A stretch of 64,000 bases of DNA. Origin: Escherichia phage vB_Eco_F26. Numbering within the stretch: position 1 is the stretch's first letter; the number at the start of each line of letters is the position of its first letter. The DNA lies in the sequence record OP870145.1; one strand, 5' to 3'. The translations under genes and the position numbers were made by a program. Shown here piece by piece: positions 1,997-41,955 of this stretch. Below the pieces are notes generated by a model, which saw only the letters and a program-made list of their open reading frames with translations, did not search any database and was not told the origin of the DNA.

Positions 1997-5137
<3,141 letters not shown>

Positions 5138-28133: not shown

Positions 28134-29056
28134 TGTATTCTTTAGAGGAATTTAATAATCAAGCAATAAACGCAGATTTCCAACGTAATAATATGTTTAG
28201 CTGCGTTTTTGCAACAACTCCATCAACTAAAAGCTCTTCGTTGATAAGTTCAATTAGCAACTTTTCTTATAATAACTTGGGCCTAAATTCAAATTGGTTA
28301 GGATTAACTCAAGGTGATATTAATCAGGGAATTACCACGCTAATTACAGCTGGCACACAAAAACTGATAAGAAAATCAGGGGTTAGTAAATATCTTATTG
28401 GTGCCATGAGTCAACGTACAGTTCAAAGTTTATTAGGCTCATTTACAGTTGGTACATATTTAATTGACTTCTTTAACATGGCATATAACTCATCTGGATT
28501 GATGATATATTCTGTAAAAATGCCAGAGAATAGATTATCCTATGAAACTGACTGGAACTATAATTCTCCTAATATTCGTATAACTGGAAGAGAATTAGAC
28601 CCTTTGGTTATTTCATTTAGAATGGATTCAGAAGCTTGTAACTATCGTGCAATGCAAGACTGGGTTAACGCTGTTCAAGACCCAGTAACTGGACTGCGTG
28701 CTTTGCCACAAGATGTCGAGGCAGATATTCAGGTTAATCTTCATTCTCGTAATGGATTGCCTCATACTGCGGTGATGTTCACCGGATGCATTCCAATATC
28801 AGTGAGCGGTCCTGAGTTATCATATGATGGAGATAACCAAATAACTACATTTGATGTTACTTTTGCGTATAGAGTGATGCAGGCTGGAGCGGTTGATAGA
28901 CAAGCTGCGCTTGAATGGCTTGAATCTGCTGCTATAAATGGTATTCAAAGCGTTCTCGGAAATAGTGGAGGTGTTACTGGACTATCTAATTCGCTTTCAC
29001 GACTCAGTAGATTAGGGGGAACCTCAGGAAGCATTTCAAATATTAGTATACTATGA
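28133..29056 (+). CDS. 54: baseplate tail-tube initiator gp54
   Basis: 307 aa; position after gene 48. Confidence 0.75.
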   Translation: MYSLEEFNNQAINADFQRNNMFSCVFATTPSTKSSSLISSISNFSYNNLGLNSNWLGLTQGDINQGITTLITAGTQKLIRKSGVSKYLIGAMSQRTVQSLLGSFTVGTYLIDFFNMAYNSSGLMIYSVKMPENRLSYETDWNYNSPNIRITGRELDPLVISFRMDSEACNYRAMQDWVNAVQDPVTGLRALPQDVEADIQVNLHSRNGLPHTAVMFTGCIPISVSGPELSYDGDNQITTFDVTFAYRVMQAGAVDRQAALEWLESAAINGIQSVLGNSGGVTGLSNSLSRLSRLGGTSGSISNISIL

Positions 29057-29104
29057 CAGGGATTGTCAATTCGCAGAGTAAAATATTAGGAGCAATATAA
29101 CAAT

Positions 29105-29135
29105 GGGGACCTTTCGGTCCCCATATTTTTATTTA
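29105..29135 (+). terminator. rho-independent terminator after gene 54
   Basis: GGGGACC-TTTC-GGTCCCC hairpin followed by ATATTTTTATTT. Confidence 0.7.
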
Positions 29136-29419
29136 CGGAATGAAATGAAAGCAGAAACTGAAGCAACTAAACTGTCTTCAATATAAACTTCAATTTTTAC
29201 CGGAGCTTCTGACTCAAATTTACCTGTTACTACACCCTGAAAAATACTTTCAGTCTGTTCTGGCTTTGAAAAATTTTCAGAAGGAAAAATTCCAAACTTT
29301 TTATCTGTTCCGAAAATTTTGATAAATTCATCATAAACTGCTTCATTAAAAGCATTATCAGCAGGAATAACGCCTTCAACTACAAGTTCTTGACCTAAAA
29401 AGCGTAAAGAAGATTTCAT
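29129..29419 (-). CDS. hypothetical protein downstream of alt
   Basis: 96 aa ORF on alt strand. Confidence 0.45.
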   Translation of the reverse strand: MKSSLRFLGQELVVEGVIPADNAFNEAVYDEFIKIFGTDKKFGIFPSENFSKPEQTESIFQGVVTGKFESEAPVKIEVYIEDSLVASVSAFISFRK

Positions 29420-29451
29420 TTTGTGTTCCTCATGTTATGTCAGTAAGAATA

Positions 29452-29838
29452 CTATAACACAACATGAGGGACTTGTAAACTACATTTTGAACTTTTTAGT
29501 ACGCGTAATAGGCATGCGTCGATTTTATACTGTTTCATTGTTTGAAGAGCAGTATCAAAAACAGCATTAATGACACCAATTGGATTTCCACCCAAGTTTT
29601 TAAGCTTAACTAATGATAGTTTCTCATTAACACCTATCATTACGATATGCATCATTTTGTCGCCTGGTTTAACGTTTTATCTGTATCACCGCCAGAGGTG
29701 TATGTACAAAATCTAAATCCAGGAAGCACGCTTTCTTCGCCGGTTTGAATAGCAAAAATTTGTGGTATTTTATGCTTAGGATTTAAGTTAACAACCGGCG
29801 CCGAAGCGCCGTCAAATAATTATGTAATAAGTTCCATG
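29452..29838 (-). pseudogene. degenerate partial duplicate of the alt 5' region (frame-disrupted)
   Basis: Begins MELIT then stop, exactly as alt begins; a second frame continues with VNLNPKHKIPQIF...GFRFCTYTSGGDT...KMMHIV...QTMKQYKIDACLLRVLKS, closely paralleling Alt residues 1-105. Confidence 0.65.
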
Positions 29839-29840
29839 AT

Positions 29841-31937
29841 TTATCCTTGAACGAACTTGTAAGGCATGTTTGCAATATCTATGCAAGACGCAATAATTCC
29901 AAGAGATGATTCTACTTTCTGTTTAACATTTGATGAAACAAATGATGCAAAGTCAACTCTGTCTTCTATTTCAATATCACCTGTCATTGCAACTACTTCG
30001 CCAGTTTCCATTAGACGGTCACCGTCATAAATTACTGATTCGGTGAGTTCTTCCGTAGTCATAACTTCAGCTTGAATGAGTTTTGTATTATTAGATGTTG
30101 TTCCGTCATTATTAGAAGCATCAGTTATTTTATTAACTTTGACCATCAATCCGCGCGGTAGAATAACTTCAGCTTCTGTTGCTATTCCGAGACTTCCTGG
30201 ATATACAACATTAACTTTATGAGCTCCATCAATTGCCCATCCTATTTGAACTTTAACGTATTCAGGATTTTCTTTATACGCTCTTATTTCGTTTGGATTA
30301 ATAGTTATTCCTTCTTCATTTTTATCAACTGTTAATTCATTGCGAGCTTCTGGTTCTAAAAGACCGATACCAGCATGTGTAATTCCAAAACGTCCAAAAA
30401 TGATAGGAGTTAAAGAAGTAGATACAAAATTTCTGAAATAGAACACTTTATTTTTAACTAGTGCTTCGTATATAGGAGCAGTCATGCTTTGAGCACGATA
30501 AACTGTAATGCCTTCTGGTATACGGTCACCATTTTCAAAAGCTGAATCTAAATTATTTATCGCAGATTCAATTTCTTTTTCACTCATTACATCATATCGT
30601 TCTGGATTGTAGCGGCCTAAAAGAAGATTATTGATGTCAGTATATCCTGATCCACAATATTCTCTAATGCCGCGCTTTTGTGATGGAGTATATTTAGAAC
30701 CATCACGGGCAATAGTAATATCAATCATTGGACCTGCACCAATTCCAGAAAAACTATAAATCATTCGTTTGAGGAATTTAGTTTTTGCTGCGTTCCAGGA
30801 ATTTTTAGTTATTTCTTCCCAGACTTCATCTGGCTGTCCTTTACGGGTTTTATTATGTTTATCAAGCCAATTATCTTTATATTCTTCAAAGAATTTATTA
30901 ACAGCTGCTGCGTATTTCTCTAAACATTTTATTGAAGTAGTTGGTTCATTTTTAATCGCATTAAGAATTACATCTTTAATTTTTTCAGAAACTTCATCAA
31001 CCTCACTTTTTGAAAAGAATTTATAGTCATAGTGAAGTTCATTTGCAGTTCCTTCAGCAATAATTTTTGCTGCCTTAGTTTTAGAAGCTAATGAATTAAT
31101 TCCAAGCTTCATTTCTTCTGCTTCGGGAATTAAAGGAGCGGTAGCAGGTTTATTAAAATTAGCTGCGGTAGATTCATACTTCTGGAATAATTCACTTTCA
31201 AATCTAGAAGATTCTAATGATTGACTTTGCGCAATTGCTCTACGGGAAATTTTAACTTTAACAATAACAGCTTGGTCAGAACGTTTATCATTTTCTTGTG
31301 CAATAGATGCTGCAATTGCCTCATTTTTAGTTACTTGAGCTCCGGTATCTTTATTGATATAAACATCGCCGACCTTCGATTCAACTTTAGTAAAGAGCTC
31401 GGTACTAATTTCCGGAACTCCTGGAATGTCTTCTAGTGATACATTTTTGCGATGTATAAGAATATATGCATACTTTTTATCATAATCCCAGAGTTCCTTA
31501 AGAAGGACGTATCTGCCGCCTGAACGACTACGGATAAGTCTATCAGCAATAACTTGAATTTGTCGAGCTTGACCAGCAGTTTTAGACTTAAGAATACGAA
31601 GCATACAGGCATCAATTTTATACTGACGCATTGTTTGCATTGCAACAGTAAAAACTGAATTGATGTAATTAATTGGGCTTGGACCGAGACCTTTTAATTT
31701 AGCAATTGAACCTTTAGCAGTTAGTGTAAAAGGAACAATGTGCATCATTTTATCGCCCATCTTTAAATCACGGTTAGTATCACCTCCAGATGTATAGGTA
31801 CATAAACGAAAGCCTGGTTGTTCAATTGCGTCATCAACATGAACTGAAAAAATTTGCGGTATTTTCTTCTTTGGATTTAAGTTTGTAATCGGAAGAGTAG
31901 TATCTTCGTCAAATAATTCTGTAATTAGTTCCATCAT
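29841..31937 (-). CDS. alt: ADP-ribosyltransferase Alt (packaged, modifies host RNA polymerase)
   Basis: 698 aa; T4 Alt position; late promoter just upstream. Confidence 0.8.
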   Translation of the reverse strand: MMELITELFDEDTTLPITNLNPKKKIPQIFSVHVDDAIEQPGFRLCTYTSGGDTNRDLKMGDKMMHIVPFTLTAKGSIAKLKGLGPSPINYINSVFTVAMQTMRQYKIDACMLRILKSKTAGQARQIQVIADRLIRSRSGGRYVLLKELWDYDKKYAYILIHRKNVSLEDIPGVPEISTELFTKVESKVGDVYINKDTGAQVTKNEAIAASIAQENDKRSDQAVIVKVKISRRAIAQSQSLESSRFESELFQKYESTAANFNKPATAPLIPEAEEMKLGINSLASKTKAAKIIAEGTANELHYDYKFFSKSEVDEVSEKIKDVILNAIKNEPTTSIKCLEKYAAAVNKFFEEYKDNWLDKHNKTRKGQPDEVWEEITKNSWNAAKTKFLKRMIYSFSGIGAGPMIDITIARDGSKYTPSQKRGIREYCGSGYTDINNLLLGRYNPERYDVMSEKEIESAINNLDSAFENGDRIPEGITVYRAQSMTAPIYEALVKNKVFYFRNFVSTSLTPIIFGRFGITHAGIGLLEPEARNELTVDKNEEGITINPNEIRAYKENPEYVKVQIGWAIDGAHKVNVVYPGSLGIATEAEVILPRGLMVKVNKITDASNNDGTTSNNTKLIQAEVMTTEELTESVIYDGDRLMETGEVVAMTGDIEIEDRVDFASFVSSNVKQKVESSLGIIASCIDIANMPYKFVQG

Positions 31938-31989: not shown

Positions 31990-32175
31990 GTAATCTAGTG
32001 GTAAGAGAGTACGATATATTTCAAACTTTGGTCCTTTTTCATAGGCATCAAATGCTTCTGTGAATTTATTATAAGCGTATGCATCTACAAATTCGAGAAT
32101 GACTTGTGATACAGAAGTAGAAACATCTCCACCTTCTTTTTGAGCAATGACAATTGTTTCTAAGTAAGCTTTCAT
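31987..32175 (-). CDS. hypothetical protein
   Basis: 62 aa ORF whose start overlaps gene 30 stop. Confidence 0.4.
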   Translation of the reverse strand: MKAYLETIVIAQKEGGDVSTSVSQVILEFVDAYAYNKFTEAFDAYEKGPKFEIYRTLLPLDY

Positions 32176-33635
32176 AGACCAGTTACCTCATGAAAATCAC
32201 CAAATACATCCTCGAATGTATTAGCTTTAGTTTTATCTTCGCGTAAACGAATCGCAATCGGAAGAAATAATTTAACGTAATCAGTGCGGCCATCAGATTT
32301 TAACCAACCATTGCATTCGCACTCTAGAATTTTTCCAATATAATAATTTTGGTTTTCCATAATGCGAGTACGGTCAAGTTCATGTGATTTTACGCCGGCT
32401 TTATCTTTTAAGCCTGAACCAGCATTTACCTTAATTTTTCCACACTCTGACTCAAGAATAAATCCACCTGCTTTAGTAGGGTCTTTACGGTGAGGATAAA
32501 TTCCTACAATTTTTAAATCAACATCAATTACTTCTTTAAATTTATAGAGATTTTTTGAACGAGCATTTTCCCATAATCCATCGATATTTTTGAGAATAAT
32601 ACCTTCAAGACCTTGGTCAATATACTTTTTATAAATTACCTTAGCTTCATCTAGGTTATTTACTACCTGGTTTTCAATTAAAATTACTTTATCATAGCCT
32701 GATGTCATTTGTTCTAGTTTAGAAAAACGTACATCATATTTCAAACGAAATGCAGGAAGACCGTATATTTCTACCAACGGGACATAATCCCAAACCTGAA
32801 ACTTCATGCATTGAGCTTCTTTTTCAGAAATGGTTCCCTTTAAAGATTTATTAGCGATTCCATTAGAAGTAGTACGTGATTCAGCTACTTCTGTGAAGTC
32901 TTTAACTTTACTGTTTTCAGGATGAGCATCAAAAAGAAAATCTAGGCCTTCTGACTCCTTTTTAACTTGCTCATGGTATACCAATTCGCCATCAATTAAC
33001 ACGCCTTCTGGATGAATCTGGCGGGCTTCAGCGGTCATTTTGATTAATTCTTCCTTAAGAAGATCTAATCCTAGATATTCATTACCGGCTCGTGATAAAA
33101 GACGAACATCATCTAATTCATCACCTCTGACTTCGGCAAAGCACCGAGCCCCATCAGCTTTTAACTGGGCAAAGGCTGGAAATTTGATATTCTTATTAAT
33201 GCCTTTTTCATCATAAGAACTTGCAAGCATTTGAGGTTGTTCAGGAATTAAACCTGGCCAAACTTTGTTTGCAATAGATACTGAAGCACCACATTCAAGG
33301 TCTCGCATCATCACTCGACGCAAAACTTCAACATCATCTTTTTTACCATCGGTGATATATCCAGTTAATTCCTCAATTGCTGCATTTCCAGTCAATTTCC
33401 GAGTAGCTAATGTGAATTCAATGAAGTCAAGCATATCGGTAAGAGTCAACATTCCAAAACTCTGGGTAGCAATACCAGGTTTAGGCCATTTCTTGATATA
33501 ATACTGCAACCCACGAGAATAAGTCAGACGATATACTCGTTTAAGCAATTCATTATCTTTATTCTTTTCAAGAATTGCTTGCTTCTGCTTAGTTGAACCA
33601 ATAGATGCTATTTCGTTCAGAATTTTAAGAATCAT
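32172..33635 (-). CDS. 30: ATP-dependent DNA ligase gp30
   Basis: 487 aa, exactly T4 DNA ligase length; adenylation motif LKADGAR. Confidence 0.9.
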   Translation of the reverse strand: MILKILNEIASIGSTKQKQAILEKNKDNELLKRVYRLTYSRGLQYYIKKWPKPGIATQSFGMLTLTDMLDFIEFTLATRKLTGNAAIEELTGYITDGKKDDVEVLRRVMMRDLECGASVSIANKVWPGLIPEQPQMLASSYDEKGINKNIKFPAFAQLKADGARCFAEVRGDELDDVRLLSRAGNEYLGLDLLKEELIKMTAEARQIHPEGVLIDGELVYHEQVKKESEGLDFLFDAHPENSKVKDFTEVAESRTTSNGIANKSLKGTISEKEAQCMKFQVWDYVPLVEIYGLPAFRLKYDVRFSKLEQMTSGYDKVILIENQVVNNLDEAKVIYKKYIDQGLEGIILKNIDGLWENARSKNLYKFKEVIDVDLKIVGIYPHRKDPTKAGGFILESECGKIKVNAGSGLKDKAGVKSHELDRTRIMENQNYYIGKILECECNGWLKSDGRTDYVKLFLPIAIRLREDKTKANTFEDVFGDFHEVTGL

Positions 33636-41047: not shown

Positions 41048-41397
41048 TTAGAAAGGTCCTGGATGTCTTCTGCGAACTTGTTGAAGGAGTTGTTGATTTG
41101 TTTTTCAACCAATCCTGGCTTATGAGCCACCACATCCGCCTTCTTTGCGTCTTTGCGCAGTTTTTCATTTTCACGCTCAATAGCAGCAATTGCCTCACGA
41201 TTTTTATTATTCATCGCATCAATATAATTATACTGAATTCGCAAATTATTTAATGCTAAGGCGTTTTCATTGGCCGTTTTTGTAATTTCAGTAACTGATG
41301 TTTCTAATCTTTCTACCTTATTTTTTAAAATAATAGATGTTCCGCCAAATGCTATTACAAGTAATAGCAATCCAGCTGTAAAATTACTTACATGCAT
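41044..41397 (-). CDS. putative i-spanin (N-terminal TM helix plus coiled coil)
   Basis: Hydrophobic N-terminus GLLLLVIAFGGTSIIL then charged helical region; paired with lipoprotein ORF. Confidence 0.5.
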   Translation of the reverse strand: MHVSNFTAGLLLLVIAFGGTSIILKNKVERLETSVTEITKTANENALALNNLRIQYNYIDAMNNKNREAIAAIERENEKLRKDAKKADVVAHKPGLVEKQINNSFNKFAEDIQDLSK

Positions 41398-41894
41398 AAA
41401 GTTTTAATAACCTCTATAATATCGTCTTGAGAAAGACCGTTAATTAAAATATGATGTTCAGCTGGAGATTTAGAAATTTTAAAGCATGCCTCAACATCTT
41501 CTGCCATATCCGATGCACTACGGTTTGGATTACTAATACCAAGGCGGTGTTTTCCCGTCAAAGGATTAACGATGATATAGCATTTGCAGTTATTGATATG
41601 AACATTAGGTTGAGTCTGATTAATGAACACTTCACAATCATACTTAGCGAGTTGATTTTCTAAAAAGACTTTCATCTCTTCAACCGCATCAGGAAGCATA
41701 TCACGGGCTTGCTCAAGACGACGATTTCGATATTCTTTAATGGTCGTTTTCCGCTTGACTTGCTTAGCTAAATCTTTCTTAAGATCAGTGATATATCCAA
41801 CTCGACGATTTCCTTTGAATACAGAAATCCCATCTGTAGTATCACCGTATGCTTCAACGACCATTTCAGTAGTAATAAGTTGTAAATCCATCAT
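41388..41894 (-). CDS. alc: Alc, host transcription unfolding/termination protein
   Basis: 168 aa; position between pseT.x and rnlA. Confidence 0.65.
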   Translation of the reverse strand: MMDLQLITTEMVVEAYGDTTDGISVFKGNRRVGYITDLKKDLAKQVKRKTTIKEYRNRRLEQARDMLPDAVEEMKVFLENQLAKYDCEVFINQTQPNVHINNCKCYIIVNPLTGKHRLGISNPNRSASDMAEDVEACFKISKSPAEHHILINGLSQDDIIEVIKTLCM

Positions 41895-41955
41895 AAAGTC
41901 CTCATGTTATGTCAGTAAGACTACTGTAACACAACACGAGGGACTTGTAAACAGC

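Follow-up and report, generated by a model that had tools for sequence, protein, structure and literature searches.

Directly after the stop codon of alt, this phage DNA begins to read like alt a second time, and then breaks off. What is this sequence, where did it come from, and does it still do anything? An earlier note, made from the letters of the window (the whole 64,000-nucleotide stretch analysed here), had described positions 29452-29840 as a degenerate partial duplication of the alt 5' end, and had proposed that it might serve as a recombination substrate or encode a truncated Alt-like peptide by frameshifting. We examined the origin of the feature by comparison with related phages, and weighed these proposals against the lesions, the substitutions and the coding potential found there.

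The alt-like stretch and its setting

The feature lies in a Tequatrovirus (T4-like) genome: 543 phage records, most of them Tequatrovirus of Escherichia and Shigella, match a 3.2-kb query around it at 95-98% identity. Read along the minus strand, DNA ligase (32172-33635) is followed by a small alt.1-like ORF, alt, the alt-like remnant and a homologue of alt.-3, after which comes gene 54 on the plus strand; the order alt, remnant, alt.-3 is identical in T4. The elements of this locus are as follows.

29841..31937, minus strand: alt, gene for the packaged ADP-ribosyltransferase (698 aa in the ORF list; Pfam PF03496; named Alt in relatives)
29480..29837, minus strand: very probable remnant (pseudogene) of a second alt-type gene, collinear with Shfl2 (locus L001) 2864-3211 and from 4902 onwards
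29451..29479, minus strand: early-type promoter for the alt.-3 homologue (TTTACA, 17 nt, TG-TATAGT; 10/12 matches, extended -10)
29129..29419, minus strand: alt.-3 homologue, 96 aa, intact, downstream of the remnant, in position and length like T4 alt.-3 and Shfl2p197

The Alt protein matches the Pfam family PF03496 (ADPrib_exo_Tox) at residues 379-628 (E 1.8e-37). Two adjacent in-frame ATGs begin the gene (31934-31937), and relatives annotate a 2094-nt form that corresponds to the second; the true start is probably this second ATG, at 31934, giving 697 aa.

The alt stop codon (TAA, 29843-29841) is followed by ATC and then by the ATG of the copy at 29837-29835, 3 nt inside the position 29840 at which the feature had been said to begin. 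From this ATG the copy reads MELIT and meets a TAA at 29822-29820, just as the earlier note had it, and the resemblance to alt is far beyond chance: blastn against the window pairs the feature with 31606-31937, the alt 5' end, in an alignment of 337 columns, 66% of them identical (E 1.4e-17), and tblastn with Alt gives two collinear matches with a joint E of 4.9e-34, pairing Alt 1-63 with frame -3 (29840-29655, 56% identity) and Alt 57-118 with frame -2 (29676-29491, 61% identity). Both of the motifs that had been quoted from it, LPGFRFCTYTSGGDT and LQTMKQYKIDACLLRVLKS, are found in the feature. The similarity does not, as had been described, run for ~125 residues in one other frame: it stays in the MELIT frame to about residue 58 and then shifts by one base into the frame of a 67-aa ORF (29655..29452), so that there is no single-frame run of that length. 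The alt-type homology stops at 29491, and the remaining ~40 nt (29452-29490) are gene-end and promoter sequence.

The promoter at 29451..29479, the top promoter-like site of the region, lies outside the alt-like homology and belongs to a 54-nt cassette that occurs twice in the window at 94% identity, at 29427-29480 and at 41899-41952 (both minus strand), upstream of the alt.-3 homologue and of an alc homologue (ORF 41388-41894), respectively. Each copy combines the early-type promoter (TTTACA, 17 nt, TATAGT) with a 5' leader and a GAGGA ribosome-binding site, and contains an inverted repeat, CCTCATGTT...AACATGAGG, for which the single-stranded DNA fold comes to -12.3 kcal/mol (z = -5.2). Mobile promoter cassettes (PeSLs) have reportedly been described for T4-type phages, and the 54-nt cassette may be related to them. 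At the other end of the alt.-3 homologue, between it and the convergent gene 54, a perfect 9-bp GC-rich hairpin at 29103-29124 (ATGGGGACC TTTC GGTCCCCAT) is bordered by T-runs on both strands and looks like a bidirectional intrinsic terminator.

A second alt-type gene and the missing 1699 bp

Many relatives match the 3.2-kb query in two pieces spread over 4.9 kb, where their records list two genes for an 'Alt-like ADP-ribosyltransferase'. In Shigella phage Shfl2 the gene directly downstream of alt is Shfl2p198, a 2058-nt ORF of 685 aa. The window is 97.6% identical to Shfl2 and collinear with it up to L001 3211, and the alignment resumes at 4902, the two blastn alignments overlapping by 9 nt (query 2702-2710). 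This overlap is the 9-mer CTAAAAAGT, which stands at both borders of the missing segment in Shfl2 and in one copy in the window; compared with Shfl2, the window lacks the 1699 bp between these direct repeats. What the window retains of the gene are thus ancestral codons 1-116 (29491-29837, one base short) and its final 11 nt, which end in the original TAG stop (29482-29480). As 1699 cannot be divided by three, the join puts codon 116 out of frame with those 11 nt (TCAAAATGTAG), and this fusion yields the odd tail SSKCSLQVPHVVL of the 67-aa ORF, which terminates only within the -10 element of the next promoter. Within the remnant, all on the minus strand, we distinguish the following features.

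29491..29499, minus strand: deletion junction, the sole remaining copy of the 9-bp repeat CTAAAAAGT (blastn overlap and side-by-side sequences)
29820..29822, minus strand: nonsense codon TAA in place of the GAA that T4 and the intact genes have as ancestral codon 6 (alignments)
29675..29678, minus strand: -1 frameshift site, a run of four A where intact genes have five (codons 54-55, AAA AAC; alignments, and the tblastn change from frame -3 to -2)
29452..29655, minus strand: 67-aa ORF equivalent to T4 alt.-2 (204 nt), made of ancestral codons 61-116 and 11 out-of-frame codons running into the alt.-3 promoter

The intact paralogue is an alt-type gene throughout. It aligns with Alt end to end at 42% protein identity, and the two genes share about 66-70% of their nucleotides at the 5' end; the YR, STS and ExE motifs are conserved in it, and PF03496 matches at residues 416-620, a domain that falls wholly in the deleted 1699 bp, since residues from 117 on are lost. 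What is left in the window accordingly has neither the catalytic domain nor the R, S-T-S and E-x-E motifs of the Alt/VIP2 clade, and Pfam finds no family in the 67-aa ORF or in the 128-aa ORF that occupies the same place in phage AV121. Over the first 355 nt of the intact paralogues the remnant is 91-97% identical to them (mostly 94-97%), whereas it is only 66% identical to the alt of its own genome.

Very probably, therefore, the region is a pseudogene: a second, full-length alt-type ADP-ribosyltransferase gene once stood in tandem downstream of alt, and this is its stump. The earlier note was right that the sequence is of alt type, decayed and in tandem with alt, and three disabling lesions separate it from the intact genes of Shfl2, RB32 and others: the 1699-bp out-of-frame deletion, the -1 frameshift and the nonsense codon. 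Its description of a duplication confined to the alt 5' end does not hold, the sequence being what is left of a whole 685-aa gene from which 1699 bp were lost between repeats.

The T4 annotation implies a tandem duplication limited to the first ~350 nt of alt, with later divergence, and the resemblance of the fragment to the alt 5' end would fit it: the T4 RefSeq note takes alt.-1 (186 nt) and alt.-2 (204 nt) to reflect an 'old duplication' of the initial part of alt that had acquired a stop codon. We give this reading very little credence, because the fragment is 95-97% identical to the 5' end of the full-length paralogue at the same locus against 66% to alt, because it retains the paralogue's extreme 3' end and stop, and because its endpoint coincides with the 9-bp repeat found at both deletion borders of the intact gene. 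The opposite polarity, with an ancestral short form and a 1.7-kb insertion acquired by RB32-type phages, follows the wording of the RB32 record, where the full-length gene carries the note 'apparent insertion in alt.-2; similar to alt'. Yet the product of the 1699 bp is collinear with Alt ~119-690 and homologous to it, the ADP-ribosyltransferase (ART) domain included, so that an inserted segment would need to have completed an in-frame homologue with perfect precision, and it is the short alleles that show frame disruptions and neutral-looking substitutions; we consider an insertion next to impossible. Both ends of the homologue are kept and microhomology lies at the join, which points to an internal deletion, and hence neither to a partial duplication here nor to an insertion in other phages.

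The history that best accommodates these observations begins with a tandem duplication of the whole alt gene, an old one given the 42% protein identity that remains between Alt and the paralogue. A tandem whole-gene paralogue downstream of alt is present in most Tequatrovirus genomes. In the lineage of T4 and the window, 1699 bp including the catalytic ART domain would then have been lost between the CTAAAAAGT repeats, probably by slipped mispairing or illegitimate recombination between these short repeats; the logic of homology, rather than a rooted phylogeny, suggests that the deletion is derived and not ancestral. A deletion through the repeated early-promoter cassette, of the PeSL type, was also considered and set aside: the borders are two 9-bp repeats inside coding sequence, and the right border lies ~12 nt upstream of the -35 element, outside the promoter cassette.

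The junction is widespread. A 100-nt junction-centred query is covered in full in 89 phage records, among them T4, RB55, RB59, SG1, slur03/14, G8 and the AV120/121 phages, while ~288 other records match only one or the other half of it, indicating that the gene is undeleted there. Each of the eight undeleted genomes sampled, Shfl2, RB32 and RB18 among them, has the paralogue as an ORF of 2058 nt, and the phage T2 record also matches the full-length paralogue. At the protein level the 118-residue N-terminal module occurs at an identity of at least 99% in 383 records, and diverged copies form the N-terminus of Alt-like proteins in T4-like phages of Klebsiella, Acinetobacter, Aeromonas, Proteus and others.

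Further lesions, substitutions and coding potential

We aligned 12 deletion alleles with eight intact 5' ends. The junction CTAAAAAGT|TCAAAATGTAG is identical in all 12, and the two smaller lesions are distributed over this common background as follows.

AV121: no lesion beyond the deletion; a single 128-aa ORF
SG1: beyond the deletion, TAA at codon 6 only
T4, RB59, RPN226, SP1, e11/2, Pu-Krd-SF2: one A lost from A5 at codon 54; the alt.-1/alt.-2 pair
Window, BYEP01, slur14, pSe_SNUABM_01: both lesions; a MELIT stub and the 67-aa ORF

The codon-6 TAA is common to the alleles of the second and fourth lines and absent from those of the first and third, and the frameshift in the A run is absent from AV121 and SG1. 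All four combinations of the two lesions thus exist on the deletion background, a pattern that fits recombination among alleles, or recurrent slippage in the A run, under no constraint. Both the loss of one base from A5, which creates the alt.-1/alt.-2 pair of T4, and the change from GAA to TAA thus segregate among alleles that already have the deletion. One further genome, BYEP02, was considered as a possible independent decay allele and set aside as uninformative: in this 154.7-kb record (OR757454.1 35924-39553, L021) alt itself is split into several short ORFs, because the gene is truly decaying or because the sequencing or assembly was poor.

Codon changes were counted against the consensus over codons 1-116.

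Private to deletion alleles: 13 nonsynonymous, 4 synonymous
Private to intact genes: 6 nonsynonymous (4 of them in one conversion patch), 18 synonymous
Shared by both allele classes: 0 nonsynonymous, 14 synonymous

The ratio private to the deletion alleles, 13:4, is near the neutral expectation for this sequence, 3.58. Fisher's exact test of these changes against all others gives p = 2.5e-5, a value that is indicative only and overstates certainty, the 12 and 8 alleles being few and related by descent. Together with the replacement in deletion alleles of residues conserved between Alt and the paralogue (G40R, G49D, P86Q), the contrast with the intact genes, clear in a small sample of related alleles, is indicative of relaxed selective constraint in the deletion alleles.

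Could the remnant nonetheless encode a functional small protein? Its product would be the 67-aa Alt.-2-like polypeptide or, depending on the allele, an Alt N-terminal domain of 61 or 128 aa, perhaps made by frameshifting, and might rival Alt for a place in the head core. Several observations would agree with this: none of the sampled alleles interrupts the 204-nt ORF, in AV121 an ORF of 128 aa runs through without a break, the first ATG (29837) is preceded by the inherited ribosome-binding site AAGGA, and a transcript is present in T4, where a time course classes those of alt.-1 and alt.-2 as 'middle' (PMC9697503 Table S2). In the window we found no terminator between alt and the stump, which is probably transcribed by read-through from alt. 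Shotgun proteomics often misses small proteins. That Alt.-1 and Alt.-2 were not detected ('NA') in the T4 time-course proteome, in which alt.-3 is early at both RNA and protein level, is for this reason weak evidence (PMC9697503 Table S2).

Several features of the sequence speak against a functional product. Translation from the inherited AAGGA site would, in the window, yield only the five residues MELIT. The 67-aa ORF, as we read its surroundings, is preceded by a weak AGG only and has no counterpart of the ATGA stop-start overlap by which it adjoins a translated upstream ORF in T4; in a sequence this short and this young, chance alone would keep it open in all sampled alleles, although its openness is still compatible with a small protein. 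The truncated peptide made by frameshifting that the earlier note had envisaged is contradicted by the closure of the upstream frame at codon 6, which leaves nothing to shift into the second frame and makes such frameshifting impossible here; the frameshift and nonsense lesions are, moreover, polymorphic, and the substitutions look neutral, so that the locus has none of the marks of a programmed frameshift. Within the 67-aa ORF the private changes are four nonsynonymous and no synonymous, conserved glycines and a proline are among the residues replaced in some alleles, no Pfam domain is present and no T4 protein was detected. We judge a functional small protein very unlikely. An Rfam scan of 29000-30000 at a permissive threshold returned three chance-level matches outside the remnant, far below gathering scores, and no known RNA element.

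A role in recombination is the other activity that had been suggested, and in its strong form the remnant would be kept as a patch of homology with which alt recombines or undergoes gene conversion, and the alt 5' end would be diversified in this way. Support for this suggestion is indirect and comes from another phage and an intact gene. In APTC-EC-2A, codons 52-58 of the paralogue differ from every other paralogue and contain a 30-nt tract identical to the Shfl2 alt allele (L013:219-248 = L001:920-949). From its sequence, this patch looks like a short gene-conversion tract from alt into the tandem paralogue, and indicates that alt and the paralogue exchange short tracts. In the remnant, by contrast, no conversion tract is found in any of the 12 alleles, the exact runs it shares with alt are short, at an overall identity of only 66%, and any exchange would be a by-product of similarity and not a selected function. 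Retention of the remnant for this purpose appears highly improbable.

There is likewise a slim chance, of the same order as that of a functional small protein, that the stump still acts in one of these ways, through a translated N-terminal module that tunes or disturbs the loading of Alt into the prohead core or acts on the host, or as a donor of conversion tracts; such a module would be 128 aa long in AV121-type alleles, the 61-aa Alt.-1 with its MELITE leader in T4, or the product of the 67-aa ORF in the window. Whole-gene paralogy, the loss of 1699 bp with 9-bp microhomology, the lesions, their polymorphism and the neutral-looking substitutions are all directly observed, and on our reading of the locus as a pseudogene the stump would have no function of its own and would persist for want of time or pressure for its removal.

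The locus in T4 and its relatives

The importance of the locus beyond annotation is small. It corrects a T4-centred reading twice, once in the T4 'duplication of the first part of alt' and once in the RB32 'insertion in alt.-2', and it implies that alt.-1 and alt.-2 are better annotated as pseudogene fragments. Most of a second Alt-type ADP-ribosyltransferase is gone from T4 and about 89 related records, and studies of injected ADP-ribosyltransferases in T4 consequently miss a second, predicted and probably active enzyme that is common in its relatives. As an example of gene decay in a lytic phage the locus is small and clear, proceeding stepwise through deletion, frameshift and nonsense mutation with all combinations represented; the more interesting biology is the role of the intact second Alt-type enzyme in the relatives that keep it.

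Naming at this locus varies between records. The full-length paralogue is called 'alt.-2' in RB32 (DQ904452.1, RB32ORF194c), RB14 and RB51 and 'Alt.-3; alt.-2' in RB18 (NC_054906.1, KMB98_gp214), whereas T4 'alt.-2' is only the 67-aa fragment, and the mixed names could mislead orthology tables.

Compared with T4 Alt, a mono-ADP-ribosyltransferase and the prototype of the Alt/VIP2 R-S-E clade (PMC5512222), the remnant holds diverged counterparts of the N-terminal ~118 residues (56-61% amino-acid identity), and its ancestral form had the MELITELFD leader of Alt; it lacks the catalytic domain and an ORF through the region, and the relationship is one of paralogy rather than that of a recent alt copy. 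From gpAlt, gp21 cuts off a small N-terminal peptide (PMC9958956); on what the N-terminal region of Alt or the second paralogue does, literature searches returned general statements only. The full-length paralogue of relatives, annotated as 'alt.-2' in RB32, as Shfl2p198 in Shfl2 or as a second 'Alt-like RNA polymerase ADP-ribosyltransferase', occupies the locus orthologous to the remnant; where those phages have a 685-aa ORF with PF03496, the window has no catalytic domain and carries two more disabling lesions.

The closest known counterpart is the pair alt.-1 (T4p199) and alt.-2 (T4p198) of T4, a comparison that the earlier note had rightly suggested: the region is 97.4% identical to NC_000866 over 461 nt. 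The two phages have in common a locus between alt and alt.-3 in which the deletion junction, the -1 frameshift and the 204-nt second ORF are the same. They differ in that T4 alt.-1 is a 61-aa ORF, which the additional TAA at codon 6 cuts to the five codons of MELIT in the window, so that of the T4 pair (61 aa and 67 aa) only the 67-aa member is kept. They differ also in the neighbouring gene: the window has the long, 2094-nt form of alt, as do slur14 and Shfl2, whereas T4 and BYEP01 have the 2049-nt allele beside a near-identical remnant, which indicates that alt and remnant alleles assort independently. Nolan et al. 2006 (PMC1524935) listed T4 alt.-1 and alt.-2 as paralogous duplications of alt and mentioned full-length alt duplicates in other T4-like phages. 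The remnant in the window is thus the T4 alt.-1/alt.-2 locus, very probably a pseudogene and one mutation further decayed, a kind of object already known and ordinary; since the relationship had been noticed from both the T4 and the RB32 sides, what is new here is only the direction of the change and its proposed mechanism.
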